A DNA stretch of 45,727 nucleotides from an uncultured Gammaproteobacteria bacterium (GCA_964470205.1 CAYYBA010000001.1:1-45727), one strand, 5' to 3'; positions 2,107-38,269 are shown, numbered from the stretch's first letter. The notes: generated from the letters alone by a model not told the origin. Translations and numbers: made by a program.

Positions 2107-2820
2107 TTACCAGCTTACATTTTTGTGCAAATAATCCATATTGTCTTTTGCTATAACCCAGGCAGTGCAGGAATGGCCTGAATAGGCGCTGTCATTTGTT
2201 CTGCTGCATCTGGTTGATAAATCTACACCAATACCGCTAGGGGCTATTGAACCGTTTTTTTGTATTACAAACATAAAAATATCTCTGCCAACTTGGTTCG
2301 GTTTTTTGTCACCATTTATATCAACATCTACATTTCCGCAAACACCTGTTGCACAATTACTTTGTGTGATAACAATAAAAAAAGACATCCCGTCTGCAAG
2401 CCTTGCTTTTGCATATTCACTGTTGTTTTCAGGGTTTGTCCAAATAGTGTTACCGTTCAAATTTTTATAATTGCCGTTCCAAAAACATCCTTTACCCTTG
2501 CCGCATCTTTTTGTAATTTTTAAATACGGTGCTAAAATATCTATAATTTTATCCGCACTTTCTCCACTCCGGACTGTTCCCCAATCCCAGGTGTCAACAG
2601 ACCCGTTTCGAATTTCAGCCAATTTAAAAGCTTGCGATATTTGTGAATAGAATTTTTTAATCGAACTTACTGTTTGGCGCTCCTGATAGTTTCTTACGAC
2701 CGTGGGGATTGTGAGCGCTGCAACAACACCGATTATGGCTAAAGTAATTAATACTTCAGCAAGCGTAAAACCCTTTTTATTTGCGCATGCAGCATTAAAT
2801 TTTGCAATTAATTCTTCCAC
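2107..2820 (-). CDS. prepilin-type N-terminal cleavage/methylation domain protein (type IV pilin-like), class i (...NMDYLHKNVSW end)
   Basis: KKG|FTLAEVLITLAIIGVVAALTIPTV prepilin signature. Shared DINGDKKPNQVGRDIFMF and CTAWVI motifs. Confidence 0.85.
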   Translation of the reverse strand: MEELIAKFNAACANKKGFTLAEVLITLAIIGVVAALTIPTVVRNYQERQTVSSIKKFYSQISQAFKLAEIRNGSVDTWDWGTVRSGESADKIIDILAPYLKITKRCGKGKGCFWNGNYKNLNGNTIWTNPENNSEYAKARLADGMSFFIVITQSNCATGVCGNVDVDINGDKKPNQVGRDIFMFVIQKNGSIAPSGIGVDLSTRCSRTNDSAYSGHSCTAWVIAKDNMDYLHKNVSW

Positions 2821-2964
2821 TTCATTTTCCGATTTTCTATATTAAATAAAGATTTTTACTCAATTATACCATATTTAATATATAAATTCAATGTTTAAAA
2901 CAGAAAAAATTAAAAATTATATATTAAATACAGTTATAAATATTATAGAGTTTAATTATTCTTG

Positions 2965-3306
2965 ATGATAAAGAAACGGAGCAAAATGGATTTAAAGAAA
3001 AAATTCGGTACAAGATTAAAACTTATAAGAAAAAGAAATCTGTTAACGCAAGAAAAACTTGCGGAATTAACAGGTATTGACTCTAAACATTTAAGCCACA
3101 TCGAAACGGGGCAAAGTTTCCCCTCTGCTAAATTAATTGAAAATTTTGCGCGTGTGCTTGAAGTTAATTCGGAAGACTTTTTTATAAATTCCGAAAGCAA
3201 AAACCGCGATATTCTGGCACAAGAAATTGTGAGTTTGCTTAAACAAATAAACGACAGGGATTTAAAAATAGTCCACAATATGGTTTTGGATATGATAAAT
3301 ACTTAA
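2965..3306 (+). CDS. XRE (Cro/C1) family HTH transcriptional regulator
   Basis: LTQEKLAELTGIDSKHLSHIETGQSFPS helix-turn-helix. Start ambiguous: TTG 2962, ATG 2965, or ATG 2986 with GGAG upstream. Divergent from pilin-like 2107-2820. Confidence 0.8.
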   Translation: MIKKRSKMDLKKKFGTRLKLIRKRNLLTQEKLAELTGIDSKHLSHIETGQSFPSAKLIENFARVLEVNSEDFFINSESKNRDILAQEIVSLLKQINDRDLKIVHNMVLDMINT

Positions 3307-4826
3307 ACCTGTTTTTTAATCATACTTTCGCCTGTCATCTCCTGCGGCTTTTCAATGCCCAGGATTTCAAGAACTGTTGGCGCAATGTCGCTCAAGGCTC
3401 CTGATTCTTTTAAATCATACTTTTTGCTGTCTATAATAATAAAAGGTACGGGGTTTGTGGTATGTGCGGTATGCGGCTGGTGCGTGTTTTTATCAACCAT
3501 ATCTTCAGCGTTCCCATGGTCTGCCGTTAAAATCATCACAACACCCATCTCAAGCACTTTTGCGGCAATTTTACCTATGCAGTTATCAACCGTTTCAACT
3601 GCCTTAATTGCAGCGTCCATTATACCCGTGTGCCCTACCATATCAGGGTTTGCAAAGTTCACCAAAATAAAACCGTATTTAGGATCATCAAGCGCTTTCA
3701 AAACATTTTCACAAACATCCCCTGCGCTCATTTCGGGCTGCAAATCATAAGTTTTAACTTTAGGAGAAGGTACAAGCACGCGTGTTTCTGTCGGGTAAGG
3801 CACTTCCAAGCCTCTGTTAAAGAAAAACGTAACATGAGCGAATTCATCGGTTTCGGCTGTTCTGAACTGCAAAACATTGTTTTTATCCAGCACCCCGCCC
3901 AAAATATTTTTCATAGCCTCAGGCTTAAATGCTACGCTAAGCGGCAGTTTTTCATCGTATTGCGTCATACAAACGTAAAAAAGATTTTTTAAAACTTTTT
4001 TGCGCTCAAAACCTGTAAAATCCGCTGTTGTAAGTGCATTTGTAATTTCGCGGGCTCTATCCGGTCTGTAATTAAAGAAAATAACAGAATCGTTATCTTC
4101 AATTCTGCGCTTTGAAATAACCGCAGGGTCAACAAATTCATCGGTAATACCTTGCTTATAAGAATTTTCAACAGCTTCAATTGCACTGTTTGCGGCATTC
4201 CCTTCGCCCAGAACAAGGCAATTGTACGCCCTCTCAACTCTATCCCAGCGTTTATCCCTGTCCATTGCCCAAAAACGTCCCATAACAGAAGCAATTTTTG
4301 GCAAATGATACTGTGCCAGCGTTTTTTCAATTTCTTCTAAATATTGAATTGCAGATTTCGGTGGCGTATCGCGCCCGTCTAAAAACGCGTGGACATAAAC
4401 ATCACAAAGCCCGTTGTCTGCCGCTATCTTAATAAGTGCTTGCAAATGCGGATAAACACTGTGCACGCCGCCGTCTGACACAAGCCCGAACAGGTGCAGG
4501 GCGCTTTTATTTTCTTTGACATGATTTATAGCGGCTAAAAATTCTTCGTTTTTGAAGAAATCACCGTCTTCAATTGATTTATTTATTCTTGAAAGTTCCT
4601 GATATACAATTCTTCCGGCACCTATGTTTAAATGCCCCACTTCGGAATTGCCCATCTGCCCTTTTGGTAAACCGACATTGCTGCCTTCAGCATGGATTTG
4701 CGCGTATGACATATTTTTTACAAAACTGTCGTAATTGGGGGTATTTGCTTTTGCAATAGCATTATATTCTCTCTCAGAGCTTATGCCCCAGCCATCCAAT
4801 ATACATAACAAAACTCTTTTTTGCAT
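3303..4826 (-). CDS. gpmI: 2,3-bisphosphoglycerate-independent phosphoglycerate mutase
   Basis: 507 aa. MGNSEVGHLNIGAGR and TADHGNAE motifs, full-length iPGM architecture. Confidence 0.95.
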   Translation of the reverse strand: MQKRVLLCILDGWGISSEREYNAIAKANTPNYDSFVKNMSYAQIHAEGSNVGLPKGQMGNSEVGHLNIGAGRIVYQELSRINKSIEDGDFFKNEEFLAAINHVKENKSALHLFGLVSDGGVHSVYPHLQALIKIAADNGLCDVYVHAFLDGRDTPPKSAIQYLEEIEKTLAQYHLPKIASVMGRFWAMDRDKRWDRVERAYNCLVLGEGNAANSAIEAVENSYKQGITDEFVDPAVISKRRIEDNDSVIFFNYRPDRAREITNALTTADFTGFERKKVLKNLFYVCMTQYDEKLPLSVAFKPEAMKNILGGVLDKNNVLQFRTAETDEFAHVTFFFNRGLEVPYPTETRVLVPSPKVKTYDLQPEMSAGDVCENVLKALDDPKYGFILVNFANPDMVGHTGIMDAAIKAVETVDNCIGKIAAKVLEMGVVMILTADHGNAEDMVDKNTHQPHTAHTTNPVPFIIIDSKKYDLKESGALSDIAPTVLEILGIEKPQEMTGESMIKKQV

Positions 4827-4881
4827 TATTAATGTCCTCTCTTTGGTTCTAATATATCATAAAAGATGTTATAATTACACT

Positions 4882-5337
4882 ATGTTTAAAGATTATTTTG
4901 TGGTTATTAAAAAATATTTTTACCGCTATATTCTGCAAAGAAACTATTTTAGAGTTGGGAAATGTAATATGTGCGGCAGATGCTGCGAAAAAATTTACGT
5001 AAAACACGGCAAATGTGTTTTGCAGGATGAAGAACATTTTTATAAATTGCGCAACATGCACAAATTCTATGAAGATTTGCACTTGGCGGGCAAAGACGAA
5101 AACGGGCTTATTTTTGTATGCAAAAATTTGGATAAAGAAACAAGAAAGTGCAAAGTGCACGCCAGCCGTGCCAAAATATGCAGGGATTATCCGCAGGAAG
5201 AAATTTTTAAAATGGGAGGCGATATGGCGCGAAGCTGCGGATATAAATTTGTGCCGATTTTTTCTTTTGAAAGCGTAATGGAGCGTGTGAAAAAATCAAA
5301 AAGCTGCATAATGTCTGTAAATGAAGAAGAGGTATTT
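4882..5337 (+). CDS. YkgJ/UPF0153 (FliB-family) CxxCxxCC cysteine-cluster domain with no stop codon of its own, reading in frame into the next pilin-like ORF
   Basis: CNMCGRCCEKIY plus CKNLDKETRKCKVHASRAKICRDYP match the YkgJ pattern. ATG at 4882. The track ORF 4735-6060 is uninterrupted. Confidence 0.65.
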
Positions 5338-6060
5338 ATGAAAAAAGGTTTTACCCTCGCCGAAGTGCTGATAACGCTTGCAATAATAGGTGTTGTGGCA
5401 GCGCTTACAATCCCAACCGTTGTACAAAATTACCAAAAAACCCAAACCGTAGTGCAGCTAAAAAAGACATATACCAGCTTAAATCAAGCTATGCAAATGG
5501 CTGTTGTAAATTACGGAAATATGGAAAATTGGAGTGATGTTTTTACCGCAGACAGAAGAAGAGATGACACGGAATTGAGAGATATTATAACAAAATATTT
5601 TATTCCGTATATGAAAGTTTCAAAAGCTTGTGCAGCGGGCGAAATGCAGCAGTGTTGGGCAGACGGATTATTGATTTATACAATAGATGGTAATTCTTTT
5701 AACACAAATTCTATAGGCGGTGGTAAGGCAAGTTTCAAGCTGGCAGACGGAACAACGGTTATGCTGATAACATCCTATGTCGGCGTTAATGACTACACTA
5801 TTAATTTATTTGTTGATTTAAACGGCTATAAAAAACCGAACAAATTGGGTAAAGATATTTTTACTTTCCTTCCGGATAGAAAAAGAAATGCAATAATTCT
5901 TATGTGCGAACAATGTACCAGGAGCAGTATAATCAATAATTCTAACGGTTCAGGATGGTATTGCAAAAAAGGAACTGGCGGCACATTGGCCGGCGGAAGT
6001 TGCGGAGCTTTAATTCAAAAAGACGGTTGGGAGATTAAAGGTGATTACCCGTGGAATTAA
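5338..6060 (+). CDS. prepilin-type pilin-like protein, class ii (...GWEIKGDYPWN end), possible internal start
   Basis: MKKG|FTLAEVLITLAIIGVVAALTIPTV. GAAGAGG lies about 7 nt upstream of ATG 5338. DLNGYKKPNKLGKDIFTF motif. Confidence 0.8.
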   Translation: MKKGFTLAEVLITLAIIGVVAALTIPTVVQNYQKTQTVVQLKKTYTSLNQAMQMAVVNYGNMENWSDVFTADRRRDDTELRDIITKYFIPYMKVSKACAAGEMQQCWADGLLIYTIDGNSFNTNSIGGGKASFKLADGTTVMLITSYVGVNDYTINLFVDLNGYKKPNKLGKDIFTFLPDRKRNAIILMCEQCTRSSIINNSNGSGWYCKKGTGGTLAGGSCGALIQKDGWEIKGDYPWN

Positions 6061-6064
6061 AGTC

Positions 6065-6283
6065 ATGTCAAATTGTGAAGAAGAAGTTTATAGAAAAATA
6101 GGCGCAAATATTAAAAAATATAGAAATTTGCGCGGTATAACGCAGGAAAAATTGTCTGAAATGTTAGATGCTAATTCCAAATTTGTAGGGCATATTGAGC
6201 GCTTTGAAAGGTATGTAGGGTTAAAAAAGCTTATTAAGATAGCTAATATTTTGGATATAGAAATAAAAAATTTGTTTGAATAG
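6065..6283 (+). CDS. XRE family HTH transcriptional regulator (small)
   Basis: ITQEKLSEMLDANSKFVGHIERFER HTH. ATG 6065 lies 4 nt after the pilin-like stop. Confidence 0.75.
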   Translation: MSNCEEEVYRKIGANIKKYRNLRGITQEKLSEMLDANSKFVGHIERFERYVGLKKLIKIANILDIEIKNLFE

Positions 6284-6284
6284 C

Positions 6285-6854: not shown

Positions 6855-6873
6855 TTTTCTTAACCTTTCTTAT

Positions 6874-7389
6874 TTATTCTACTGATTTTGCTGCTTTAAT
6901 AACTCTTACAAGGGCAGACATAATACCGTTTATACCGTAAACAATGCCGCTTGCAGGAGAATTGATAGAGCCCAGGATTTTTGCATAAAGTTCTTCTTTT
7001 GTAGGAAGGTTTGCTAAACCTTGTGCTTCTTGTGCGTTTAACACCCTGCCGTCTAAAACGGCACCTGTGATTTCGCATTTTTTTGCTTCTTTGATAAAAT
7101 CGCTTAAAACTTTGGCAGCTGAAACTTCATCGCTAAACCCGAAGGCAATGGCTGTAGGCCCTTTAAGCAAAGCTTCAATGGATTCAAACGCTGTTCCTTT
7201 TGATGCAACTTTGCACAAAGTGTTTTTTGTAACGGTAAGGTCGCTGTCTTTAGCTTGTAAAGAGCGTCTTAAGTTTGTGATTTCTTCAACCGTCAAACCG
7301 CGATAATCAGCCACAACCGCAACTTTTGCGTTTTTAAACTGCTTTTTATAAGATTCGATTTTTTCACTTTTAAAAGCTTTTGTTGACAT
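6874..7389 (-). CDS. rplJ: 50S ribosomal protein L10
   Basis: 171 aa, L10-like sequence (VVADYRGLTVEEITNLRRSL), immediately upstream of rplL. Confidence 0.95.
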   Translation of the reverse strand: MSTKAFKSEKIESYKKQFKNAKVAVVADYRGLTVEEITNLRRSLQAKDSDLTVTKNTLCKVASKGTAFESIEALLKGPTAIAFGFSDEVSAAKVLSDFIKEAKKCEITGAVLDGRVLNAQEAQGLANLPTKEELYAKILGSINSPASGIVYGINGIMSALVRVIKAAKSVE

Positions 7390-7538
7390 AATTGGGAATC
7401 TCCTTTCTTTTTGTTTGGCAAAGCCTTATAACAAAAAAGTTTTGCCACAATACGCGCAAAACAATAACAAAAAGTTTTCTTGCTACCTCGGCCGGAAATT
7501 AAGGTTTTGTTGAACCACCGACTGTCTGCGGTATTTGT
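7390..7538 (-). promoter_or_regulatory. long 5' leader of rplJ-rplL, candidate L10-type autoregulatory leader
   Basis: About 150 nt between the predicted promoter and the AAAGGAG RBS. GC-rich core CCGCAGACAGTCGGTGG...CCGGCCGAGG and a GGCAAA/TTTGCC hairpin. Assignment to the L10 leader class is inferred from position only. Confidence 0.4.
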
Positions 7539-7544
7539 GAAAAG

Positions 7545-7573
7545 AGTATAATATAAAGTCTTAATAAAGTCAA
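7545..7573 (-). promoter_or_regulatory. sigma70-type promoter for rplJL
   Basis: On the minus strand: TTGACT (7573-7568), 17-nt spacer, TATACT (7550-7545). Confidence 0.55.
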
Positions 7574-7647
7574 TGATTTTATTAAGCAATAAAATCCCCA
7601 CCATTTTATGTATAGTCTTTTGGTAAAAAATGTGTATAATTATAAAT

Positions 7648-8559
7648 ATGGAAAATGAAATAACACTCACCAAAGAGCAGCTCATAAATCTTGTAAAGAT
7701 TGCGGATATTGAGGTAAACCCGGATTTTGTAACCTCTAATGATATATCGCGTGCGCTTATTGCAATTGAGAAAAAATTAAATTTCTTTAATTATCCTCTC
7801 AGTTTTTTCACGGCGGAAAGTTTAAATGTTCTTATTATTGATGATATGGAACTGTCTATTTATCAATTAACATCAATGCTTAAAAAAATCGGTATGAATG
7901 TTTTTGTTTCCCGTACAAAAGAAGAAGCCATAGCCGAGATTAAGAAAAAGCATTTTGATTATATTATTGTAGATTTATTTTTGCCTGATGCCAAAGACGG
8001 TTTTGAAGTTATAGAATTTGCAAACCACTTTAAGCAGGAAAACGGCAGAGAATATAAGGTTTTGGCAATATCAGGCACGGATGATAAAACCATTATTCAA
8101 GACGCTTATAAATACGGCGTTGATGAATTTGTACCCAAGCAGCCAAACTGGCATGAAAAAATTATGAAATTTATAGCGCTTTCAACAAGCAAAGTAAACA
8201 GCGAAGAATTTAACAAGTATTTTATTAACGAAGATATTTGCGTATTCACTATTCATAAAATCAATAACCAAAAATACATTGATTCAATTTATAAAGAAGT
8301 AAACGCAGTGCTTTTATCCGGCAAAAAAAATATAATATTTAATATGGAATATGTTAAAATATTTTCGGATAATTATGCCGGAATTTTTGCGGAGATTTAT
8401 AAAATTGCCCTTGCGAAAGAAGGTCAGTTCGTTATAGTAAAACCGTCTGCCGATGTTCGAAAAGCACTTGATTTTGTGTTTTTAACAGGTATTATTCCGG
8501 TTTATGAAACTCTGGAAGATGCTGTAGGTTTTATTGAAATGCACAATTTTGTGGATTAA
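7648..8559 (+). CDS. response-regulator receiver domain protein with C-terminal STAS-like (anti-sigma antagonist-like) domain
   Basis: REC: VLIIDDMELS...IIVDLFLPDAKDGFEV...VLAISG...FVPK. C-terminal IIFNMEYVKIFSDNYAGIF...FVIVKPSADVRKALDFVFLTGIIPVYETLEDAV resembles SpoIIAA/STAS. ATG 7630 is an alternative start. Confidence 0.6.
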   Translation: MENEITLTKEQLINLVKIADIEVNPDFVTSNDISRALIAIEKKLNFFNYPLSFFTAESLNVLIIDDMELSIYQLTSMLKKIGMNVFVSRTKEEAIAEIKKKHFDYIIVDLFLPDAKDGFEVIEFANHFKQENGREYKVLAISGTDDKTIIQDAYKYGVDEFVPKQPNWHEKIMKFIALSTSKVNSEEFNKYFINEDICVFTIHKINNQKYIDSIYKEVNAVLLSGKKNIIFNMEYVKIFSDNYAGIFAEIYKIALAKEGQFVIVKPSADVRKALDFVFLTGIIPVYETLEDAVGFIEMHNFVD

Positions 8560-8727: not shown

Positions 8728-9372
8728 TTACCACGGGTAATCGTCTTTAATCTCCCAACCTTCTCTTAAAATTTTATCCGTGCAACATGACTTAGAATCA
8801 CTTTTGCAGGCTGCATCTACCTGGCTTTTAGTCTTTGTATGGCAATAAGGCAAAACCCCTTTATTGTCATAGAGAAATTCAAAGACATCTCTTCCTGCTA
8901 TGTTTGGTCCTTTTGCACCGTTTATATCAGCCAAAATATATGAAACCTTGTTTTCTATACCCCCAAAAGCCGTACGAATTAAAATGAAAGAGCCGTCCGT
9001 TAAAAGAAATTGCACACCCATAATTGATTCCATGCCTGCAATTACCGTTTGCTGCCATGGGGTTGGGGTTTTATATCCGCAGTAGTTTGGTGTCGAACAC
9101 ATCTGTTGAACCTTTAAATAAGGCTTCCAATAAGTTTCAAAAAATTTTTGAGGAGTGTTTAAAAGTTCGCTATCCCATGTAGAATAAGCACCATTTTCAG
9201 CTTCAGACATGTTTAATGCCTGATTCAAGATAGAATAATTTTTCTTTAATTTTACTACTGTTTGCTGTTTTTGATAATTGCGCACAACGGTTGGAATTGT
9301 AAGCGCTGCAACAACCCCTATTATTGCAAGGGTAATTAAAACTTCCGCCAAGGTAAAACCTGCCTTTTTCAT
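8728..9372 (-). CDS. prepilin-type pilin-like protein, class ii (...GWEIKDDYPW end)
   Basis: MKKAG|FTLAEVLITLAIIGVVAALTIPTV. DINGAKGPNIAGRDVFEF motif. Confidence 0.85.
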   Translation of the reverse strand: MKKAGFTLAEVLITLAIIGVVAALTIPTVVRNYQKQQTVVKLKKNYSILNQALNMSEAENGAYSTWDSELLNTPQKFFETYWKPYLKVQQMCSTPNYCGYKTPTPWQQTVIAGMESIMGVQFLLTDGSFILIRTAFGGIENKVSYILADINGAKGPNIAGRDVFEFLYDNKGVLPYCHTKTKSQVDAACKSDSKSCCTDKILREGWEIKDDYPW

Positions 9373-9398
9373 GGTGCGCTCCTTAACTATTTGATTTT

Positions 9399-9422
9399 TA
9401 TATTAATTATTTAATTAATATA
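9399..9422. promoter_or_regulatory. perfect 11-bp inverted repeat (candidate operator) between divergent pilin-like and HTH genes
   Basis: TATATTAATTA-TT-TAATTAATATA read directly. AT-rich context makes chance palindromes more likely. Confidence 0.3.
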
Positions 9423-9478
9423 CGAATTATAATATACAATACCAAGCACCTTTTTGTCAAATAAAATATAATTGCCTT

Positions 9479-9703
9479 ATGGAAATAAATATAAGAGCAA
9501 AAATCAAATACCTGCTTTCATTAAAGGGTTTGACAATTACAAAACTTGCCGAGCTTATGAGCGAGAAAACAGGCGAAAAATATACCTTTCAGCGCCTTTC
9601 GCACAAATTAAGACTTAACAAATTGACACTTAAAGAAGCTTATATTATAGCAGATCTAATAGGATATGATTTAGAATTTGTCGAAAAGGAACAAAAGCCT
9701 TAA
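9479..9703 (+). CDS. small HTH DNA-binding protein (XRE-like)
   Basis: 74 aa. LTITKLAELMSEKTGEKYTFQRLSHKL HTH-like segment. Divergent from pilin-like 8728-9372. Confidence 0.6.
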   Translation: MEINIRAKIKYLLSLKGLTITKLAELMSEKTGEKYTFQRLSHKLRLNKLTLKEAYIIADLIGYDLEFVEKEQKP

Positions 9704-12061: not shown

Positions 12062-12774
12062 CACCCTACGCTTAAACCGGCGCACAAGTTAATTGCCTGC
12101 CCTGTGAGGCCTTTTGCTTCATCGGATATTAAATATTTAACTAAATTCGCAATTTCATAAGGTTCAATAAAGCGTTTCTGCGGAATTATATCTAAATTCT
12201 CTTCTTCACTTATCCCCTCTTGCATAGCTTTATCAGCAAGTGCGGTTTTAACCCAACCCGGGTTTATTAAATTTACGGTTATATTATCCCGGGCAACTTC
12301 AAGCGCTAAAGATTTTGTAAGTCCTAAAAGAGCTGATTTTGTAGCACTGTATAAAGTTGCGTTTCCTTCCCCCATATTACCTGAAATTGAACCTATATTT
12401 ATAATTCTGCCCCATTTATTTTTTTTCATATCTTCAAGAACCAGGGCTGATAGATAATAAGGTGCTAAAAAATTTAATTTTGTTATGTTTTCAATGTCTT
12501 TTAAAGATGTTTTTTCAATAGGAGAATAAATATAACAACCTGCGTTATTAATTAAAATATCAATTTTGCCCAAATACTTTTTTGCACTTTTAAAAAGCTC
12601 CGCGCAAGCCTCATATGTTGATAGATTAACGCTTAAATAGTTTTCTTTATTTAATTTGCGCCTTGCACATCCGAATATTTTATAACCTTGTTTTGCAAGA
12701 TTTTCCTCTATTGCAAACCCTATACCTGATGTTGTTCCTGTAACCAGTACTGTTTTAAAATTGTTTTCACTCAT
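12058..12774 (-). CDS. SDR family oxidoreductase (FabG-like)
   Basis: VLVTGTTSGIGFAI cofactor motif, NNAG, YSATKSAL catalytic motif. Confidence 0.85.
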   Translation of the reverse strand: MSENNFKTVLVTGTTSGIGFAIEENLAKQGYKIFGCARRKLNKENYLSVNLSTYEACAELFKSAKKYLGKIDILINNAGCYIYSPIEKTSLKDIENITKLNFLAPYYLSALVLEDMKKNKWGRIINIGSISGNMGEGNATLYSATKSALLGLTKSLALEVARDNITVNLINPGWVKTALADKAMQEGISEEENLDIIPQKRFIEPYEIANLVKYLISDEAKGLTGQAINLCAGLSVGC

Positions 12775-13132
12775 ATTCTTCTATTTTGTTTAATCTTTCA
12801 TGAGGCATAGTAAGCTCAATACCTGTATGATTTAATATTATATCAGATATAGAATAAATCAATTCTTCTCTCTGTGCTTTTGTTAAACTCTGCATAGCTT
12901 CAATTGCGCAATGTAATTCGGGATTTTGGTCATACCACCTTTTGTAATCTTTCGGGTTATGCTCTGACATTATATTAATAAATTTGTCATAATCTCTCTC
13001 AACGATTTTCGGTATGTTTAATATCATATCCTGGCCTACTTCCTCCTGAACATCAGGAGGCAAGGTCTGTAAAAGCACCATAAATGTGCTTAAGTATTTG
13101 TCTTTATCATACCATCTTATGTACTCTTTCAT
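12767..13132 (-). CDS. small protein with two RWYD repeats (uncharacterised family), paralog of 39064-39399
   Basis: IRWYDKDKYL... and KRWYDQNPEL... repeats about 60 aa apart. Overlaps the downstream SDR gene by 8 nt. Confidence 0.6.
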   Translation of the reverse strand: MKEYIRWYDKDKYLSTFMVLLQTLPPDVQEEVGQDMILNIPKIVERDYDKFINIMSEHNPKDYKRWYDQNPELHCAIEAMQSLTKAQREELIYSISDIILNHTGIELTMPHERLNKIEEYE

Positions 13133-14478: not shown

Positions 14479-15549
14479 CTAAAATCTGAAGTCTCTTTTT
14501 CCGCATGCAATTTGGTCTAAATTTTGTTTTAAAATTTCTTTTGTCTTTTGGCTAGAAACATGTTCAATTTCTTTTAAAATAATTTCTTCGCCCAATTTTT
14601 TAGTGGCATCTGATGCGTAATCTTGAAGGTATTCTTTTAAAGTTAAAAGCGCATTAGGGTGGCAGCAGTTTAAAATTTGGCGGCTTTTGCATAAATCCAT
14701 AAACCTATCCCCCACACGCCCTTCACGATAACATGCCGTGCAAAAACTCGGTATATGGCCCATTTCCATAAGCCATCTTATAACTTCATCCAATGTTCTT
14801 GTATCTATAACATCAAACTGGGCAGAATTTTCTTCTTCTTTTTCAGGCTCAACATATCCGCCCACACTTGTTTTAGACCCTCCGCTTATCTGTGAAATTC
14901 CAAGCTCTAAAACTTTTTCGCGTGTTTTTTGGTTTTCCCTTGTAGATACAATCATACCCGTATATGGCAGTGCAATTCTAATGCAGGCAACAATTTTTGC
15001 AAATGTTTTATCATCAATTGAATTGGAAAATGTTGCGGGGTCAATATCATCTGCAGGGCGTATTCTTGGTACACTTACAGTATGCGGCCCTATACCGTAC
15101 ACTGCTTCCAGATGCTCGGCATGCATTAAAAGTGCCGCAAATTCGTATTTGTACATTTCAAGTCCGAATAAAACACCAATGCCTACATCGTCAATGCCGC
15201 CTTGCATGGCTCTGTCCATTGCTTCAGTGTGGTAATTATAGTTGTGTTTCGGGCCTGTGGGATGTAATTTTTCATAACTTTCCTTATGGTAAGTTTCTTG
15301 AAAAAGTATATAGGTGCCAATTCCCGCATCATGCAATTTTTTATAATTTTCAACCGTTGTAGCTGCGATATTTACATTGACACGTCTTATAGCGCCGTTT
15401 TTGTGTTTGGTGTCATAAATTGTTTTAATACTTTCTAAAATATACTCTAAAGGGTTATGGTAAGGGTCTTCACCCGCTTCAATAGCGAGTCTTTTGTGCC
15501 CCATATCCTGAAGCGCTATAACTTCACGCATTATTTCTTCCTGTGTCAT
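14479..15549 (-). CDS. hydG: [FeFe]-hydrogenase maturase HydG, C-terminal 356-aa portion (split gene)
   Basis: Radical-SAM barrel continuation. C-terminal CTAC-X22-C cluster motif (CTACYREGRVGDRFMDLCKSRQILNCC) distinguishes HydG from ThiH. Confidence 0.8.
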   Translation of the reverse strand: MTQEEIMREVIALQDMGHKRLAIEAGEDPYHNPLEYILESIKTIYDTKHKNGAIRRVNVNIAATTVENYKKLHDAGIGTYILFQETYHKESYEKLHPTGPKHNYNYHTEAMDRAMQGGIDDVGIGVLFGLEMYKYEFAALLMHAEHLEAVYGIGPHTVSVPRIRPADDIDPATFSNSIDDKTFAKIVACIRIALPYTGMIVSTRENQKTREKVLELGISQISGGSKTSVGGYVEPEKEEENSAQFDVIDTRTLDEVIRWLMEMGHIPSFCTACYREGRVGDRFMDLCKSRQILNCCHPNALLTLKEYLQDYASDATKKLGEEIILKEIEHVSSQKTKEILKQNLDQIACGKRDFRF

Positions 15550-15896: not shown

Positions 15897-15951
15897 TTTT
15901 GTGCCTCCAGATATATAATAGCACAATGAAAAATCTTCGGTGCCCTTAATT

Positions 15952-16848: not shown

Positions 16849-16910
16849 AATAAGTATTTATATTATAATATAAAAAATAATAATAAAATAATTTTAGCAA
16901 GTGAGGCAAT

Positions 16911-17831: not shown

Positions 17832-17839
17832 TGCGTTTC

Positions 17840-18895: not shown

Positions 18896-18909
18896 TTTAT
18901 TCCTAATTA

Positions 18910-20534: not shown

Positions 20535-20535
20535 T

Positions 20536-21420: not shown

Positions 21421-21436
21421 TTTATTCCCCCAAAAT

Positions 21437-24907: not shown

Positions 24908-24929
24908 TCTCCATCTTACAGATTTTTTA

Positions 24930-25945
24930 CTATCTTTTAAAAGCAAATACAGCAGAATTCATAACTTGCTCATTAAAGATTCCGATACTTACCAACAATT
25001 CAAAATCTTTTATAGTCAAACCCGTTACTTTTTGAAATAATTCAGGTTCAAGTTGGCGTATAACATCTTGTAGGGTTTGCTCTCTTGCATCTGTTAAGTA
25101 CATAAAGACTGGCACTCTTGCTGCAAACTTTATTAATTTTTCTTGAATTTCTTTTCTTTTATTTTTAATCTCTTTTTCTTGTGCTGTCAGTTCTTTTTTT
25201 TCTTCGCCGCTCAATCCTCCAGGATTTTCTTTTTTAAGTTTATTCAGAGACTCAGATTTGTTCACAAGTGTTGTTAAGTCAAGTTTTAATTGCCTGAAAG
25301 TTTCAATTTTCCCTAATGCTTCCATTGCTGGTTCACTACTCAATAATTTTGAAAGTGTTCCATTATCGACATTAACCAATAATGCACTTTCCCAACGTCT
25401 TGCTAGCATTGATGAGGCTGTCCCACTAATTACCAAGTCTAAAAGTTCAGACGCGCTGATTTGATTCATTGTACTTCCGTCATAGCACAAAACTGGGAGA
25501 AAACTTATAAATTCTTCGACTCTTTTTTCCGGTGTATCTTTTGAATTAACGCTTAGTCTTGCACTATAATCTGCAATTTGTTTTAATGCTCTATCTGGTG
25601 CAAAATCAAATACATAACAAGTATTTTTCACGACTTCTTTTTCATTAGGGTTTAATCCATCAGGATTTTTCACAACCCATGGAGACTGAACTCTAAATGC
25701 TGATTGGAAATATGTTTCAGGGCTTGATGTGTTCCGTAGCATAAATATCCCACTCCATTGTGGAATTGTAACCCCTGTTGTTAGTTTCCCGCATGAAAGA
25801 GTTATTGTGCCATTGTTAAACCCGTTTCCAATTGCTCTTTCGACAGGAATGATTGCATCAACCCCCATTCCAGCTTCGCTTCCGGCACTTACAATGATTT
25901 CATACTTGTTATAAAAAGGGTGCCTTTTTAATAAATCGCCCATAG
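24930..25945 (-). pseudogene. 5'-truncated helicase gene fragment (type I/III restriction-enzyme-like SF2 helicase C-terminal half)
   Basis: CGKLTTGVTIPQWSGIFMLRNTSSPETYFQSAFRV resembles helicase motifs V-VI. No Walker A or DEAH region. The first ~18 codons of the track ORF are antisense to pilin sequence. Confidence 0.6.
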
Positions 25946-25952
25946 CTTTGCA

Positions 25953-26540
25953 AAACAAACGGTTGTACAGCTTAAAAGATTTTATTCGCAAATGTCTCAA
26001 GCATTTAATATGGCAAGAATTAATGAAGGAGAACCTGAAAATTGGGGCTGGAGTGCATATCTAAGTGATATCGGCTCAAAAAACGGATTAGATAAACTTG
26101 TGCCGTACCTTAAAATTACAAAATATTGCGGTTTAGAAATGTCAAAAGATTGCTTTCCCAATGTCACTTATAAATATTTAAACGGTAATGATTGGCTTAA
26201 AGCAGATAATGTCAATAGGTATGCCAAGGCAAAATTGGCTGACGGCACTATGTTCATAGTTGAATCATACAGTTCAAATTGTGAATTTTCAAGAGGAGCT
26301 ACAAAAGAGCTTAATGGAATTTGCGCTTTAATTCATGTTGATATTAACGGTTATAAAGGGCCAAACCAGTTGGGTCGTGATTATTTTACATTGTATCTTA
26401 CAAAAAACGGAATTATGCCGTCAGGTACGAAAAATGAATCTGCGCAAGATTGCAGTAAAAGCGGATACGGTTTTCGCTGTGCAGGCTGGGTAATCTATAA
26501 AGAAAATATGGACTATTTAAAACATGATGTAAATTGGTAG
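25953..26540 (+). pseudogene. 5'-truncated pilin-like gene (class i) lacking leader and hydrophobic N-terminal helix
   Basis: In-frame upstream reading gives KQTVVQLKRFYSQMSQAF, matching the post-helix region of the paralogs. The GFTLAEV... segment is absent. C-terminal DINGYKGPNQLGRDYF and NMDYLKHDVNW are intact. Confidence 0.7.
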
Positions 26541-28939: not shown

Positions 28940-29158
28940 CTAAAATTTAAAATCAAGCATTTGCGCAGGTTTTAAATCAAGAGCACGCGCGATACCAACA
29001 AGCGTTAAATAGCCGGGGTTGCTTTTGCCGCATTCAATTTCGCTTAAAGAACTTGTGCTCAAATTGGCAAGTTCGGCTAAATGCTCCTGCGACATTTTGC
29101 GCTTCATACGCTCCAACCTTATTTTTGCGCCCAATTCTAGAAGTAATTCGTTTTCCAT
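28940..29158 (-). CDS. XRE family HTH transcriptional regulator (small)
   Basis: MSQEHLAELANLSTSSLSEIECGKSNP HTH. Divergent from the pilin-like pair. Confidence 0.8.
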   Translation of the reverse strand: MENELLLELGAKIRLERMKRKMSQEHLAELANLSTSSLSEIECGKSNPGYLTLVGIARALDLKPAQMLDFKF

Positions 29159-29175
29159 GGTATTATTGTATTATC

Positions 29176-29230
29176 TTGACACAAACAATTCCATATGTTA
29201 TGATTAAATTATATAGTTTAAACACTATAT
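29176..29230 (+). promoter_or_regulatory. sigma70-type promoter plus downstream inverted repeat (candidate operator) for pilin-like 29245
   Basis: TTGACA (29176-29181), 17-nt spacer, TATGAT (29199-29204). Then ATATAGT-TTAAAC-ACTATAT (29211-29230) just before the GAAAGG RBS. Confidence 0.5.
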
Positions 29231-29244
29231 GAAAGGTTTATAGT

Positions 29245-29907
29245 ATGAAAAAAATTGCCGCGAAAAAAGGTTTTACCCTCGCTGAAGTTCTTATAACATT
29301 AGCCATAATCGGTGTTGTTGCGGCATTAACAATACCTGGCGTTATTCGCAATTACAGAGAAGTGCAATATAAAGCACAAGTCAAAAAAGCATTTTCAACA
29401 CTGCAGCAGGCTGTAAATAAAACAAGTTATGATTTTGGCACAACACCTCGCTGTTATATCGATTACAGCGGCGGTGGCGATAGCCAAAACGTTTATTACA
29501 ACACGGAATGCCCGTCTTTTTTTAAAACGTTAAGAGATAATATGAAAGTTGCAAAATACTGCAGCGGCAACGCTTACGCAAACGGATGTATACCAGATTA
29601 TAACCCTTCTCCTACAAGCTCTGCAACAGTTAATGCTTTTTGTACCGAATGGTTAAAAAAATACGACCCTACCTGGGTTTTAACAGATGGCACAATAATA
29701 ATAAGCTATGCCGGTACACACCCTTTAATGGCTTTTGACATTAACGGCAAAAAAGGCCCCAATAAATTCGGATATGATTTATTTGCGCTAAGCCTTACAA
29801 AAGATAACAACAAGGGTGTGGTTATAACAAACCTTAGAATAGGTGGAGAGCCTCTTGAAGAAGGGGGAAAATCTTTGTTTGATACACTTAAATGGGCTTA
29901 TGAATAA
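29245..29907 (+). CDS. prepilin-type pilin-like protein, divergent class iii
   Basis: MKKIAAKKG|FTLAEVLITLAIIGVVAALTIPGV. DINGKKGPNKFGYDLFAL motif. Different C-terminus (LKWAYE). Confidence 0.85.
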   Translation: MKKIAAKKGFTLAEVLITLAIIGVVAALTIPGVIRNYREVQYKAQVKKAFSTLQQAVNKTSYDFGTTPRCYIDYSGGGDSQNVYYNTECPSFFKTLRDNMKVAKYCSGNAYANGCIPDYNPSPTSSATVNAFCTEWLKKYDPTWVLTDGTIIISYAGTHPLMAFDINGKKGPNKFGYDLFALSLTKDNNKGVVITNLRIGGEPLEEGGKSLFDTLKWAYE

Positions 29908-29995
29908 ATTTAGAGTGTTTCAGTCTGTTTGGCAAACACAGGAAAGTTGCAAAAAGGGGCAAAATATTCTACAATAAAGGGAAAAGGAGATAAAA

Positions 29996-30739
29996 ATGGA
30001 GGAAATTATTGCATTTACTGACGCCCCCGTAGATAAAAAAGGTTTTACGCTTGCAGAAGTATTGATAACTCTTGCAATAATAGGCATTGTGGCAGCGCTT
30101 ACCGTGCCTACGGTTATAAGAAATTATCAAGAGCGCCAAACAGTAACAGCCTTAAAGAAATTTTACACGGAAATAAGTCAAGCGTATGCAAGAGCGCAGG
30201 TGGGTAATGCCACACCCGACACCTGGAATTGGGGGGCAGGTGCCGACGGCACAAGTGCCGATAAAATTATAGATATTTTAGCGCCGTATTTGAAAATTAC
30301 AAAAAGATGCGGGAATGCCGGCGGGTGCTTTTCGCCTGACACTTATAAAACTTTAAACAAAAATATTAGTTGGCACGGACCAAACTTTGGACAATATGCA
30401 AGTGCACAATTTGCAAACGGATTAGCGTTTTGGATTTATACACAAGGTAGTGGCTGTACAACAAACAGGGGCAGCACAAAGGGGCTTGGCTCTATTTGTG
30501 GTCATATTGGGGTTGATTTAAATGGTTATAAAAAACCAAACCAATTGGGACACGACACTTTTTATTTTTACTTAACAAAATATAATATTATTCCAATGGG
30601 TACAAAAGATGAAACTATGTATACTATATCAAACTATTGTAAAATTTCAACTCAAACGGATAACAATGGTTTTGCATGTACTGCCTGGGTTATTCAAAAA
30701 GGCAACATGGATTATTTAAAACAAGATGTTAACTGGTAA
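29996..30739 (+). CDS. prepilin-type pilin-like protein, class i
   Basis: DKKG|FTLAEVLITLAIIGIVAALTVPTV. AAAGGAG RBS. DLNGYKKPNQLGHDTFYF, CTAWVIQKGNMDYLKQDVNW. Confidence 0.85.
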   Translation: MEEIIAFTDAPVDKKGFTLAEVLITLAIIGIVAALTVPTVIRNYQERQTVTALKKFYTEISQAYARAQVGNATPDTWNWGAGADGTSADKIIDILAPYLKITKRCGNAGGCFSPDTYKTLNKNISWHGPNFGQYASAQFANGLAFWIYTQGSGCTTNRGSTKGLGSICGHIGVDLNGYKKPNQLGHDTFYFYLTKYNIIPMGTKDETMYTISNYCKISTQTDNNGFACTAWVIQKGNMDYLKQDVNW

Positions 30740-31357
30740 TTAAAGGCTTCTAATTCTATTAATAGGCCAGAAGATAAAAATGGAGCGTCCTATTATTCTC
30801 TCTTTCGCTAAAAACCCCCAAAAACGGCTGTCCTGGCTGTTTGCACGGTTATCTCCCATCATAAAATATTCGTTTTCGGGAATTACAAAAGGCCCGCAGT
30901 ATTTGTCTTTATCACAAACAGTCCAGTCTTTATGTGTTAAAACATAGGGTTCATCAAGTTTTTTGCCGTTTATATAAACATAACTTTCATTATTTTTATT
31001 TGTTTTAATTTCAAATTTATCACCGGGTATCCCTATAACACGTTTAATATAGGCAATGTCCTTGCAAAAAATTCCCGTCAAACGCGCAAATACGGCAAAA
31101 AAACCATTTTCTAGCTTTTCTTGCGGGGGATAAAACACTAAAATATCGCCCCTTTGAGGCAGCCTTTTAAAACGTGATACCCTTTCAACAAAAACTCTGT
31201 CGCGTTCAACAAGTGTCGGATGCATTGAACCTGAAGGAATCCACCTTAATTCACCCAGGAAAAAACGAATTATAACAACTGCAACAATGACAAAAACAAC
31301 AGTTTCTACAGTTTCTTTTATAAACGCCTTGATTTGTGTATTCTTTAGTTTTGCCAC
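30740..31357 (-). CDS. lepB: signal peptidase I
   Basis: SGSMHPTL (Ser), RVIGIPGD and GDNRANSQDSRFWG motifs. Confidence 0.9.
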   Translation of the reverse strand: MAKLKNTQIKAFIKETVETVVFVIVAVVIIRFFLGELRWIPSGSMHPTLVERDRVFVERVSRFKRLPQRGDILVFYPPQEKLENGFFAVFARLTGIFCKDIAYIKRVIGIPGDKFEIKTNKNNESYVYINGKKLDEPYVLTHKDWTVCDKDKYCGPFVIPENEYFMMGDNRANSQDSRFWGFLAKERIIGRSIFIFWPINRIRSL

Positions 31358-31358
31358 A

Positions 31359-32207
31359 TTAATTATCCTTTAAATTCTCAAATATTTCGCTTAAGGCTTT
31401 CCTGTAATCATTATTACCCGCAAACATTAATTTTTTATTAGCATTGAGGACAATATTATCCAAAAATTCTTTGGCCTCAATTATATATTTGCCTTCCAGT
31501 GTCATAATATCACAATCAGATTTTTTTTGCATGCACGATAGTACATAGGGAAGAGTGTAAATTCCGTTTTTGATATCTTCTTTGGAATTAAGGTCGTTTA
31601 AAATTTGAAAAGCAAGCCCGAAATCAAGGGTAAAATCTTCAATATCTTTTGCATGTTCCTTGTAATTTGATATTAAAAGAGCGGATTTGACAGCGCACAC
31701 AAACAAAAGTGCGGTTTTATTTTTAGATTTTTCAAGATATTGTTCTAAATTCGGTACTTTATTTTTTTGAAAATACTGATCAATTTCGCCTTTACACATA
31801 TTTTTTATGTTTTGGGAAAAAATTTCAATAACAGAGGGCGAATTTATTTGTGCAAGCTTTTCAAAAGCTAAAGAAAGCAAAAAATCACCTGCAAGGGTTG
31901 CTTCTTTTGCGCCGAATTTTGTGTGAAAAGTTTCCCCGCAGCGCCTTAGTGCTGCTTCATCTATAATATCATCATGGATTAAGGTGGCATTGTGCACAAG
32001 TTCAATTGCAAGTGCAAGTTTTTGATGATTGGGCGTAATTTCAAGATTAAGCATTTTTAAAATCAAAAACATAACTTTAGGGCGAAGCCTTTTCGCGCGC
32101 GCGAAAACAAAACTTTTTAAATCTTCAAAAAGCTCGTTTTTGTTATTTTCAAGCACGCTTAACAAATCACGTTCAAGCAGCCTTAGTGCGTTTTCAATAC
32201 CTATCAT
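31359..32207 (-). CDS. trans-polyprenyl diphosphate synthase family protein (second Asp-rich motif degenerate)
   Basis: First Asp-rich motif LIHDDIIDE is present. The second is FQILNDLNS instead of DDxxD. 282 aa. Confidence 0.75.
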   Translation of the reverse strand: MIGIENALRLLERDLLSVLENNKNELFEDLKSFVFARAKRLRPKVMFLILKMLNLEITPNHQKLALAIELVHNATLIHDDIIDEAALRRCGETFHTKFGAKEATLAGDFLLSLAFEKLAQINSPSVIEIFSQNIKNMCKGEIDQYFQKNKVPNLEQYLEKSKNKTALLFVCAVKSALLISNYKEHAKDIEDFTLDFGLAFQILNDLNSKEDIKNGIYTLPYVLSCMQKKSDCDIMTLEGKYIIEAKEFLDNIVLNANKKLMFAGNNDYRKALSEIFENLKDN

Positions 32208-33314: not shown

Positions 33315-33316
33315 TT

Positions 33317-34123: not shown

Positions 34124-34132
34124 TTTTTTCTC

Positions 34133-36519: not shown

Positions 36520-36571
36520 TTTGACCTCCTTAAAAATATCTCCTCAATCTGTTTCTTTATTTTATTACATT

Positions 36572-37045: not shown

Positions 37046-37087
37046 GCTGTTTATTGTAGCACAAAGACAAGGATTTCAAAGTTAAAA

Positions 37088-37420
37088 TTACATTATGATT
37101 TTAATATCTTTTGCAATTGCATATAAAGTTTGAACTTTATTATAATTCAGATCATCAATTATATTCTTAAGCTCTTCTTTTATTTCTTCTTCGCTTCTGC
37201 AATCACCGTTGTCAAAAAAATTACCTATACTGCAGCCAAAAACTTTTGCCAGTTTTGTTAAAGTAGATAAAGACGGAAAAGATTTTCCTGCTTCGATTAA
37301 AGCTACCTGGCGCTGGTTTATCTCTATTTTTTCGCTCAAAGCAAACTGTGTCATTTTAAGAGCATTTCTAAATTGCTTTATTTTTTTGCCTGTCAGTTTT
37401 TTAACTATTTCTTCATTCAT
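37088..37420 (-). CDS. XRE family HTH transcriptional regulator with C-terminal extension
   Basis: MTQFALSEKIEINQRQVALIEAGKSFPS HTH. Divergent from pilin-like 37523. Confidence 0.8.
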   Translation of the reverse strand: MNEEIVKKLTGKKIKQFRNALKMTQFALSEKIEINQRQVALIEAGKSFPSLSTLTKLAKVFGCSIGNFFDNGDCRSEEEIKEELKNIIDDLNYNKVQTLYAIAKDIKIIM

Positions 37421-37522
37421 TAATTAATACCTTTTTATTTTATTATAATTTTCATATAACTTAATAAAAATGGTATTTAATATTTTAAATTACTAATAAT
37501 AATGATATTATAAATTGTAATT

Positions 37523-38269
37523 ATGATTTTGGATGTTGTAAAAATGGTTGATAGAAGAATTAATAAAGGGTTTACGCTCGCCGAAGTGCTTATAACTCTT
37601 GCGATAATTGGTGTTGTGGCAGCCCTTACAATTCCAACGGTTATAAGAAACTATCAGGAACGCGAAACAGTTAGCGCATTAAAGAAATTTTATTCTCAAA
37701 TATCTCAAGCTTTTAAAATGGCAGAAATTGAAAATGGTCCCATTGAAACTTGGAATTGGGTAGGATTGGAAAGTCCTGCCGGTGCGAATAACGTTTTAAA
37801 CATAATTTCTCCTTATCTTAAAATTACAAAAAATTGTAAATCAGGAGACGGATGCTTTGCTAAAAAATACAAAAATCTCCCCGGTGGAGATTGGTTCACC
37901 GTAAGTGTAAATGACGTTTCAACATATGCAAAAGCACGATTGGCGGATGGAATGTCTTTTTGGATTATTTCAGCTTCCGATAATTGCACATTTACAAGTG
38001 GCAGCGGCAAAAGTCTAAATGCTATTTGCGGCTCTTTGGGAGTTGATTTAAATGGTGATAAAAAACCAAATACCTGGGGCAAGGATACATTTTATTTTCG
38101 TATAACAAAATATGGGTTTTTCCCTATGGGTGCAAAGGATGATACAATGTTTCCGTTATCTACCCATTGCAGAATGTCAAGCCAAGATCAGCGTAACGGC
38201 TATGCATGCGGTGCATGGATTTTAGGAAAAGATAATATGGATTATTTAAAGCGTGATATAAGCTGGTGA
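37523..38269 (+). CDS. prepilin-type pilin-like protein, class i
   Basis: INKG|FTLAEVLITLAIIGVVAALTIPTV. DLNGDKKPNTWGKDTFYF, NMDYLKRDISW. ATG 37544 is an alternative start. Confidence 0.85.
   Translation: MILDVVKMVDRRINKGFTLAEVLITLAIIGVVAALTIPTVIRNYQERETVSALKKFYSQISQAFKMAEIENGPIETWNWVGLESPAGANNVLNIISPYLKITKNCKSGDGCFAKKYKNLPGGDWFTVSVNDVSTYAKARLADGMSFWIISASDNCTFTSGSGKSLNAICGSLGVDLNGDKKPNTWGKDTFYFRITKYGFFPMGAKDDTMFPLSTHCRMSSQDQRNGYACGAWILGKDNMDYLKRDISW

Follow-up and report, generated by a model that had tools for sequence, protein, structure and literature searches.

A contig of 45,727 nucleotides deposited for an uncultured Gammaproteobacteria bacterium (GCA_964470205.1, CAYYBA010000001.1:1-45727; this whole stretch is called the window below) carries eight pilin-like open reading frames (ORFs) and five small helix-turn-helix (HTH) genes among its 58 genes. 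The original prediction, made from this DNA, was that five of the pilin-like loci have a small Cro/C1-type regulator gene as immediate neighbor, that these modules lie between unrelated core genes, and that having one regulator per pilin points to an individually switchable repertoire of subunits. ORF listing and translation reproduced all the coordinates, the adjacency of the five HTH genes to pilin-like loci, and the single co-directional pair (5338-6060 and 6065-6283), which is separated by 4 nt as described. Homologs of the pilin-like genes come almost exclusively from metagenome-assembled genomes of Gastranaerophilales/Melainabacteria, with a few records labeled otherwise or generically, and the window is a contig of a gut Gastranaerophilales (Melainabacteria) genome. 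Assemblies CAZYYK01, CABLZX01 and HF9914xx have a Melainabacteria-type pilin family and bear the record labels "uncultured Gammaproteobacteria", "Brachyspira sp." and "Clostridium sp. CAG:967"; these are probably taxonomic mislabels.

The modules and the pairing of regulators with pilin-like genes

The pilin-like genes and the regulators are as follows.

2107-2820, minus strand: pilin-like gene 1, 237 amino acids (aa); class III signal peptide KGFTLAE and DUF6613-type head; N_methyl 31.9 bits, weak DUF6613 match of 16.4 bits
2965-3306, plus strand: XRE regulator of module 1; long class (113 aa), its C-terminus a helical tail; HTH_31 43.6 bits, HTH_3 38.7 bits; divergent from pilin-like gene 1
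5338-6060, plus strand: pilin-like gene 2, 240 aa; in frame behind a CxxCxxCC-domain ORF that starts at 4735
6065-6283, plus strand: XRE regulator of module 2, 72 aa; HTH_3 31 bits; co-directional, 4 nt downstream of pilin-like gene 2
8728-9372, minus strand: pilin-like gene 3, 214 aa, from the N_methyl scan and family alignment
9479-9703, plus strand: regulator of module 3, small (74 aa); XRE fold predicted, no match to a Pfam family
25992-26540, plus strand: pilin-like 3′ fragment, head only, lacking the N-terminus; adjoins a strain-specific low-GC glycosyltransferase island
28940-29158, minus strand: XRE regulator of module 4, 72 aa; HTH_3 42.5 bits; −10-like TACAAT ends 6 nt before the ATG; no ribosome-binding site
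29245-29907, plus strand: pilin-like gene 4a, 220 aa; ortholog in a relative 84% identical
29996-30739, plus strand: pilin-like gene 4b, 247 aa; the relative lacks 29908-30736, an indel that corresponds exactly to one cassette
37088-37420, minus strand: XRE regulator of module 5; long class (110 aa); HTH_3 44.9 bits; ribosome-binding-site-like AAAGG upstream
37523-38269, plus strand: pilin-like gene 5, 248 aa; AlphaFold model: N-terminal helix of 53 residues, then an alpha/beta head
40287-41045, minus strand: pilin-like gene with no regulator, 252 aa; Ala at −1 (AFTLAE)

All five HTH genes of the window immediately adjoin a pilin-like gene, where permutation of the gene order (58 genes, eight of them pilin-like) gives a mean of 1.3 (P = 6e-4). 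Four of the pairs are divergent and one, that of 6065-6283, is co-directional. For a larger sample we took the window together with 80 pilin-centered loci with 10-kb flanks from a genome scan, 1.2 Mb in total, in which pilin-like ORFs were called by a family hidden Markov model and XRE ORFs by iterative searches seeded with the window regulators. This yielded 152 pilin-like ORFs, 59 XRE ORFs and nine relatives of the gene at 9479-9703 (the 9479 type). Of the 59 XRE ORFs, 44 are no more than 400 bp from a pilin-like gene, and 41 of these 44 are divergent from it; the choice of pilin-centered loci inflates the fraction of 44 in 59 and leaves the ratio of densities unaffected. That ratio is 26-fold (Poisson P ~ 1e-45): XRE ORFs number 4.24 per 10 kb at distances up to 400 bp from a pilin-like gene, and 0.16 per 10 kb where the distance exceeds 1 kb. 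Seven of the nine 9479-type relatives are equally close to a pilin-like gene. Taking all the pilin-adjacent regulators together 48 of 51 are divergent, and in a census of orientation no pair other than that of 6065-6283 is arranged tail-to-head.

At least one pair is found in loci from 26 other species-level assemblies. On the syntenic contig of the closest relative (L091), where the annotation is independent of ours, each of the three precomputed HTH_3 genes divergently adjoins an N_methyl gene. The adjacency of XRE and pilin-like genes is real, non-random and spread through Gastranaerophilales, and the expectations that it would exceed chance and be conserved in relatives have both been borne out. 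Partnered pilin-like genes number 49 of the 152, about one third.

The eight pilin-like ORFs align as one family, with invariant Cys residues and the motif D-[IL]-N-G-x-K-x-P-N-x-x-G-x-D-x-F. Apart from the 3′ fragment, they begin as class III prepilins do (G↓F-x-x-x-E, then a hydrophobic helix of ~20 residues). Six of the eight pass the gathering score of 21.2 bits for PF07963 (N_methyl), at 27.5-31.9 bits, and the three that were tested against TIGR02532 all pass it. The protein encoded at 40287-41045, where Ala replaces Gly at −1, scores 16.5 bits, under the N_methyl gathering score. The same substitution (AFTLAE) occurs in several family members, including L084 3212-3886 and L095 1496-2302 in addition to 40287-41045(−). 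The leader before the cleavage site has 3 to ~28 residues in well-called genes of the family, and longer values are probably start-codon miscalls. In our own scan the window proteins score 15.3-22.3 bits with PF20318 (DUF6613), against a gathering threshold of 24.3, and the database lists a precomputed PF20318 match for an identical protein (P0001) and for most of the homologs. The 45.7-kb window has eight paralogs, and the loci obtained for the closest relative have 22 or more.

The AlphaFold model of the 37523-38269 protein (predicted local distance difference test score, pLDDT, 91.8) has a helix at residues 19-71, followed by a further helix and six or seven strands. In the model the extended N-terminal helix packs on a beta-sheet head, and the predicted architecture is that of a pilin lollipop. 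A Foldseek search of the PDB with the full model gave no meaningful fold neighbor. The head has no sequence neighbor in the PDB either, and a profile search of PDB sequences reached only the N-terminal helix of known pilins. Pilin-like gene 2 lies in a single uninterrupted ORF, 4735-6060(+), in which a CxxCxxCC (PF03692) zinc/iron-chelating domain (residues 76-157) is fused to it in frame. This could be a read-through, a lost stop codon or an operon.

The Cro/C1-type identity originally given to all five regulators holds by HTH_3 (PF01381) for four, which score 31.0-44.9 bits against a gathering score of 23 bits. The fifth, 9479-9703, matched no Pfam and no NCBIfam family in profile scans, and for it an XRE fold is a prediction only. 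Its family profile aligns to an XRE profile across the whole domain (hhalign E = 1.3e-4), and its AlphaFold model (pLDDT 92.4) is a four-helix bundle. The Foldseek matches examined for that model are all of XRE fold (HipB, SinR, ClgR, DdrO, HigA2 and the POU-specific domain), with template-modeling (TM) scores of 0.62-0.66 and a root-mean-square deviation of ~2 Å. The five HTH proteins are 25-28% identical to each other in pairwise comparison. The module 1 regulator has sub-threshold matches to RstR, CapH and control proteins, and all NCBIfam and PADLOC matches of the regulators fall under the family cut-offs. Their Control_protein matches score 16-36 bits in a PADLOC library that lacks curated cut-offs.

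Putative promoters and candidate operators in the shared spacers

The elements found between the divergent genes of the window are listed here.

2821-2964: control region of module 1, 144 bp; promoter-like 2891-2863(−), TTGAAT-17-TATAAT with TG, toward the pilin gene
9373-9478: control region of module 3, 106 bp; putative pilin promoter 9460-9431(−), TTGACA-18-TATATT, 11 of 12 matches
9467-9472, plus strand: putative −10 box of the module 3 regulator, TATAAT, 6 nt before the ATG at 9479
9399-9422: module 3 palindrome, 24 bp with 11-bp arms, between the pilin −10 box and the pilin ribosome-binding site
29159-29244: control region of module 4, 86 bp; putative pilin promoter 29176-29204(+), TTGACA-17-TATGAT with TG, 11 of 12 matches
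29211-29230: module 4 palindrome, ATATAGTTTAAACACTATAT, 7-bp arms
37421-37522: control region of module 5, 102 bp; weak promoter match only, 37484-37511(+)

Near-consensus promoters (TTGACA-16/18-TATAAT) point toward the pilin gene in 20 of 40 spacers, and toward the regulator in two of 40, compared with 12.7% of control upstream regions. The spacers of modules 3 and 4 have the best promoter matches of two window regions that were scanned. On the regulator side, 17 of 40 spacers have a −10-like hexamer (TATAAT, TAAAAT or TACAAT) whose end is 3-10 nt from the start codon of the regulator, compared with 9.4% of controls (P = 1.7e-7); in 15 of these 17 the distance is 6-7 nt. A motif resembling a ribosome-binding site precedes two of 40 regulators, compared with 42% of controls (P = 4e-7). 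Given a −10 box so near the ATG and so few ribosome-binding motifs, we predict leaderless regulator mRNAs, and back-to-back promoters with overlapping polymerase footprints. The long regulators (~105 aa), such as 37088-37420, instead bear a sequence like a ribosome-binding site. Many of the regulator mRNAs thus appear from their start regions to be leaderless.

In other genomes there are palindromes with arms of up to 17-22 bp just past the pilin −10 box (L021/L013, L008). Because the best perfect inverted repeats of the 40 regulator-pilin spacers are not enriched over those of 351 control intergenic regions (P ~ 0.1), we claim no general operator signature. Orthologous spacers of the 9479 family from five independent lineages keep four blocks, corresponding to the regulator −10, the pilin −35, the pilin −10 and TAATYAAWTRATTA, with variable promoter spacers. 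The last block is partly palindromic and lies downstream of the pilin −10 box in all five. TAATYAAWTRATTA occurs 15 times in 1.32 Mb, ten of them in 9479-family spacers, a count made with a motif derived from the same sequences, and it is on that account only a candidate for the operator of the 9479 family. RNA hairpins predicted in the 5′ untranslated regions of the window modules are weak (−5.5 to −6.4 kcal/mol, z −0.8 to −1.7), no better than those of shuffled sequences. An Rfam scan placed no family in any module spacer. Its sole match was the L10 leader at 7424-7549(−), with 61.9 bits, upstream of rplJ/rplL, which overlaps a listed and probably spurious ORF (7293-7685(−)).

Turnover of cassettes and conservation of regulators

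A homolog search with the 72-aa protein of 28940-29158 at E ≤ 1e-5, a threshold too strict for so short a protein, gave one match, and this single match led to the syntenic contig of a relative. This contig of GCA_964651135.1 follows the gene order of the window from 26.5 to 40.2 kb, with ~87% nucleotide identity, and every break in collinearity falls at a module. At the lepB-rplS site the relative keeps the orthologous regulator (97%) and pilin-like gene 4a (84%), and lacks 4b. At the folE2-rfaE site, which holds module 5 in the window, it carries another pilin-like gene (40% identity). Past the ClpN-domain gene it has two pilin-like genes and an XRE gene, where the window has the truncated pilin gene abutting the glycosyltransferase island. 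Since the ~87%-identical relative has the two pilin-like genes, the XRE gene and hemN at that place, the island is strain-specific. It is a low-GC (28-32%) glycosyltransferase-like stretch at 15952-26000, recognized by reading translations, in which only the RgpF-like 22928-24946 is confirmed by Pfam; it ends in a 356-aa ORF (24930-26000) that could not be annotated and abuts the truncated pilin gene. The location of the modules between housekeeping genes, as originally described, is evident both from the gene content of the window and from the contig of the relative.

In L040 (4726-7926, compared with window 28940-32207) an ortholog of module 4, with a regulator 54% identical, adjoins lepB-ispB in the opposite orientation. 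As a whole it has been either inverted or reinserted independently. Gain and loss of cassettes at fixed chromosomal sites fits surface-exposed subunits under diversifying pressure.

Regulators and pilins have related histories, their identities being correlated over 41 pairs (Mantel r = 0.35, P = 2e-4). Between orthologs the regulators are the better conserved, with identities of 99, 93, 84, 84 and 68% against 79, 60, 49, 35 and 33% for their pilins. Within the window this is reversed: pilins 2107-2820 and 37523-38269 are 55-57% identical and their regulators 25%. Divergence of paralogous regulators beside similar pilins would be expected if regulator-operator pairs are kept orthogonal, or insulated. 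Third-codon identity in the conserved 5′ segment of the pilin genes is only 49%, with synonymous sites saturated, which argues against recent duplication or gene conversion. The same value excludes recent gene conversion, or a shared recombination segment, as the source of the conserved pilin 5′ end. Together with the 25-28% identity of the regulators it upholds the view that the modules did not arise by one recent duplication.

Homologs of the 9479-type protein number 69, are 57-93% identical, and are all unnamed "hypothetical" proteins. Contig look-ups found a divergent pilin-like neighbor in four of six cases, with different flanking genes each time. A metagenome scan added 17 loci, of which ~15 could be evaluated and only two have a pilin-like neighbor; the contexts lacking one include a human-gut lineage (61% identity). 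By hand tally over independent lineages ~55-60% of 9479-type genes lie next to a pilin-like gene. A random gene would be pilin-adjacent in ~5-10% of cases, assuming 50-100 pilin-like genes in a genome of ~2,000 genes. The adjacency of the 9479 type to pilins is still far above this expectation, though clearly not obligate.

Two of the pilin-less contexts have a common feature. A conserved helical ORF (58-79 aa, ERQEFIK..AIYEEF..LKPF) lies just upstream of the 9479-type regulator on the opposite strand, at L092 1138-1314(−) and L093 2205-2444(−). In L093 a TTGACA-17-TATATT promoter sequence points toward this small ORF, and in L092 a second 9479-like paralog (77 aa) lies between it and the regulator. 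The two contexts suggest replacement of the cargo, with regulator and promoter kept together as a unit. What is conserved looks like a regulator with its divergent promoter, the cargo being exchangeable.

Two further features of the window lie outside the modules. A radical-SAM/BATS enzyme (ThiH/BioB-type, possibly HydG) at 14479-15926(−) is split into two overlapping ORFs; 15546-15926 has the CxxxCxxC part, and 14479-15549 begins at position 28 of the Radical_SAM profile. A frameshift-split hydG has been reported in another Gastranaerophilus genome (PMC5877343). The paralogous ~120-aa proteins of 12767-13132(−) and 39064-39438(−) belong to no Pfam family and each have a duplicated RWYD[KQE][DN]P motif; the ortholog of the second in the relative (orf125, L091) is 94% conserved.

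Probable local repression and alternative explanations

On balance we think it probable that local XRE repressors each gate the strong promoter of one exchangeable pilin-like cassette. The genome has a large, dispersed and old paralogous family with a prepilin leader, a hydrophobic helix and a lineage-specific, Cys-containing head of DUF6613 type, present as cassettes of one or two pilin-like genes placed between housekeeping operons. In about one third of the cassettes a small XRE-fold protein is encoded divergently over a spacer of ~60-200 bp, in which a strong sigma-70-type promoter would drive the pilin-like gene. The regulator promoter would stand back-to-back with it, its −10 box 6-7 nt from the ATG giving a leaderless mRNA. 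By binding an operator specific to its module, located at the pilin promoter or a short way downstream, the regulator would hold its own cassette off and probably regulate itself, and each regulated cassette could be released independently. Regulators and control regions are conserved across species, with a pilin head that diverges or is swapped. The data show the gene families, the statistics of adjacency, orientation and conservation, the sequence signatures of promoters and leaderless starts, and the turnover of cassettes; from these we infer binding to spacer DNA, repression, independent switching, surface display and assembly by a type IV pilus machinery. Repression is preferred to activation because the pilin promoters are near-consensus, and independent control is proposed because the paralogous regulators have diverged. 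The individually switchable repertoire that was originally proposed is consistent with the pilin-ward promoters, the apparently leaderless regulators, and the conservation of orthologous and divergence of paralogous regulators. A stronger version is possible, if doubtful. In this, gut Melainabacteria would have alternative pilus subunits or tip proteins by the dozen, and a third of these would stand behind private, mutually orthogonal and sensor-less XRE switches, each with a leaderless regulator and back-to-back promoters that exclude one another. Stochastic flipping of the switches in single cells would give combinatorial and heritable variation of the pilus surface with no DNA rearrangement.

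A number of observations weigh against local repression as just described. Two thirds of the pilin-like genes have no adjoining regulator, the pilin-like gene at the folE2-rfaE site of the relative has none, and ~40% of the 9479-type contexts examined (by hand tally) have no adjoining pilin-like gene, although the protein is 60-77% conserved. On these three counts the data do not bear out the idea of one regulator per pilin as originally put. Because the 9479 type is kept with no pilin-like gene beside it, the regulators are not strictly private to the neighboring pilin, and the pilin-less examples from the metagenome scan lowered our confidence in strictly private regulation. In two of these contexts the divergent promoter points toward a small non-pilin ORF. 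The short regulators have no sensor domain. The missing enrichment of inverted repeats and the circular derivation of the TAATYAAWTRATTA count bear on the operators in the same way. Lastly, there is no pilus machinery gene in the window; pilA, pilB, pilC, pilD and pilT have been reported from one single-cell Gastranaerophilus genome (PMC5877343), and L095 has a T2SSE ATPase gene close to a module.

The strongest competing explanation is control in trans or by a hierarchy. In it the XRE proteins act mainly as network regulators of several loci, pilin-like or otherwise, as they would in a hierarchy where one locus silences the rest, and adjacency only marks where the regulator gene travels. Orphan 9479-type regulators persist under purifying selection with no adjoining pilin-like gene, and the unpartnered two thirds of the pilin-like genes, 24% of which bear a near-consensus promoter, must be controlled somehow. 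Yet paralogous regulators within a genome share only 25-28% identity, the candidate 9479-family operator is essentially confined to its own spacers (10 of 15 occurrences), and strict divergence (48 of 51) with short spacers indicates cis-local control, so we regard a trans-acting network as unlikely. Rather less likely still is that the module is a self-contained cassette exchanged horizontally, whose XRE protein works like the C protein of a restriction-modification (R-M) system in timing or capping a membrane-inserted protein after arrival, and does not serve environmental or random switching. Such exchange would account for gain, loss and replacement at fixed sites between ~87%-identical genomes, and for finding the same regulator-pilin pair amid different flanking genes across genomes; the sub-threshold likeness to R-M control proteins, CapH and RstR is also in its favor. 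Against it, the surroundings of the modules bear no sign of an integrase, a transposase, a tRNA or flanking repeats (the window has no tRNA genes), and an IMG/VR scan with a pilin pattern found no relative in viral contigs. Moreover the saturated synonymous sites mark the paralogs as old residents, and many cassettes move or exist with no regulator. Among related candidates that we discarded, an R-M controller is excluded by the absence of R-M genes next to any module, a phage CI/Cro switch by a divergent partner that is pilin-like and flanks that are housekeeping genes, and a phage origin by the lack of an IMG/VR relative of the pilin-like family with the pattern used.

Two other explanations account for less of the data. 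The palindromes past the pilin −10 box might be RNA hairpins of the 5′ untranslated region, acting in stability or attenuation, with the HTH proteins regulating something else. The very long perfect palindromes of L021/L013 and L008 (17-22 bp per arm) would indeed be transcribed. Against that, the window hairpins do not exceed shuffled sequences, the spacers contain no Rfam family, and the statistics of adjacency and orientation are left unexplained, making this very improbable. Least credible of all is a toxin-antitoxin-like or anti-phage pair, with the XRE protein as antitoxin or repressor and the pilin-like protein as a membrane-active effector. The XRE fold is common to the antitoxins HipB, HigA and MqsA, and there are sub-threshold matches to antitoxins and defense regulators. 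But the pairs are divergent (48 of 51) rather than co-transcribed, the partner combines a canonical prepilin leader with the disulfide-rich kind of head that exported proteins typically have, and two thirds of the pilin-like family have no partner. A type II toxin-antitoxin system, with one operon and a known toxin family, was rejected given this orientation and a partner that matches no toxin model, and a defense system given that PADLOC has no match for the pilin-like proteins and only generic HTH matches for the regulators.

Significance and comparison with known systems

Gastranaerophilales are uncultured, widespread gut relatives of Cyanobacteria, whose cell surface is almost uncharted. 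A large pilin-like family with fast turnover, a third of whose members have a dedicated small regulator gene, provides a first concrete handle on how they may vary adhesion, phage receptors and immune visibility. The modules are compact, with a regulator of 70-110 aa, a spacer of ~60-200 bp and one target, so that specificity and bistability are testable in a heterologous host, and the diverged paralogous regulators could supply orthogonal repressor-promoter parts. The conserved, Pfam-less "hypothetical" 9479-type family gains a likely role and a predicted fold, and DUF6613 a genomic context. If the stochastic-switch version were true, exchangeable regulator-promoter-cargo cassettes would be a new route to surface variation. 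Full-text literature searches found no mention of DUF6613, nor a paper that we recognized as describing the pairing of pilins and regulators, in Melainabacteria or elsewhere, in agreement with the original view that this is not a described system.

The pilin-like proteins resemble type IV pilins and type II pseudopilins (PilA, minor pilins, GspG-K, ComG) in their [G/A]↓FTLxE leader, hydrophobic helix, predicted lollipop and head cysteines. They differ in a DUF6613-type head that has no sequence or Foldseek match in the PDB, and in genes that are scattered as many paralogs between housekeeping genes, a third of them XRE-paired, rather than gathered in pilus or secretion operons. Large paralogous families in which an N_methyl leader precedes a phylum-specific head of unknown function also exist in Planctomycetes (DUF1559) and Verrucomicrobia (the "Verru_Chthon cassette"), and TIGR02596 (Verru_Chthon-type) is among the N-terminal NCBIfam matches of the window proteins. 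The head domain of the window family is however unrelated to those of either expansion, and to our knowledge a per-gene XRE partner has not been reported for them.

On the regulatory side the nearest parallels are lambda CI (PRM/PR), RstR of CTXphi and the C proteins of R-M systems. They too combine a small XRE protein, back-to-back promoters, an apparently leaderless regulator and partial palindromes by the target promoter; the lambda cI mRNA from PRM is leaderless. Here, in contrast, a second, antagonist regulator is absent, as are prophage and R-M genes, the IMG/VR scan found no viral relative, and the target is a pilin-like structural gene. Surface structures are controlled by UpxY/UpxZ at the capsule loci of Bacteroides and varied at pilE/pilS in Neisseria. 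With these the modules have a functional analogy, in many alternative surface loci per genome, control linked to the locus and turnover between strains. They differ from them in regulator family and in mechanism, and we saw no invertible promoters, recombinases or silent cassettes, and no recent gene conversion. Local XRE repressors and expanded prepilin-like families are thus each of a kind already known. What is new here is their systematic pairing across the order, the apparently leaderless back-to-back layout, and turnover at the level of whole cassettes.

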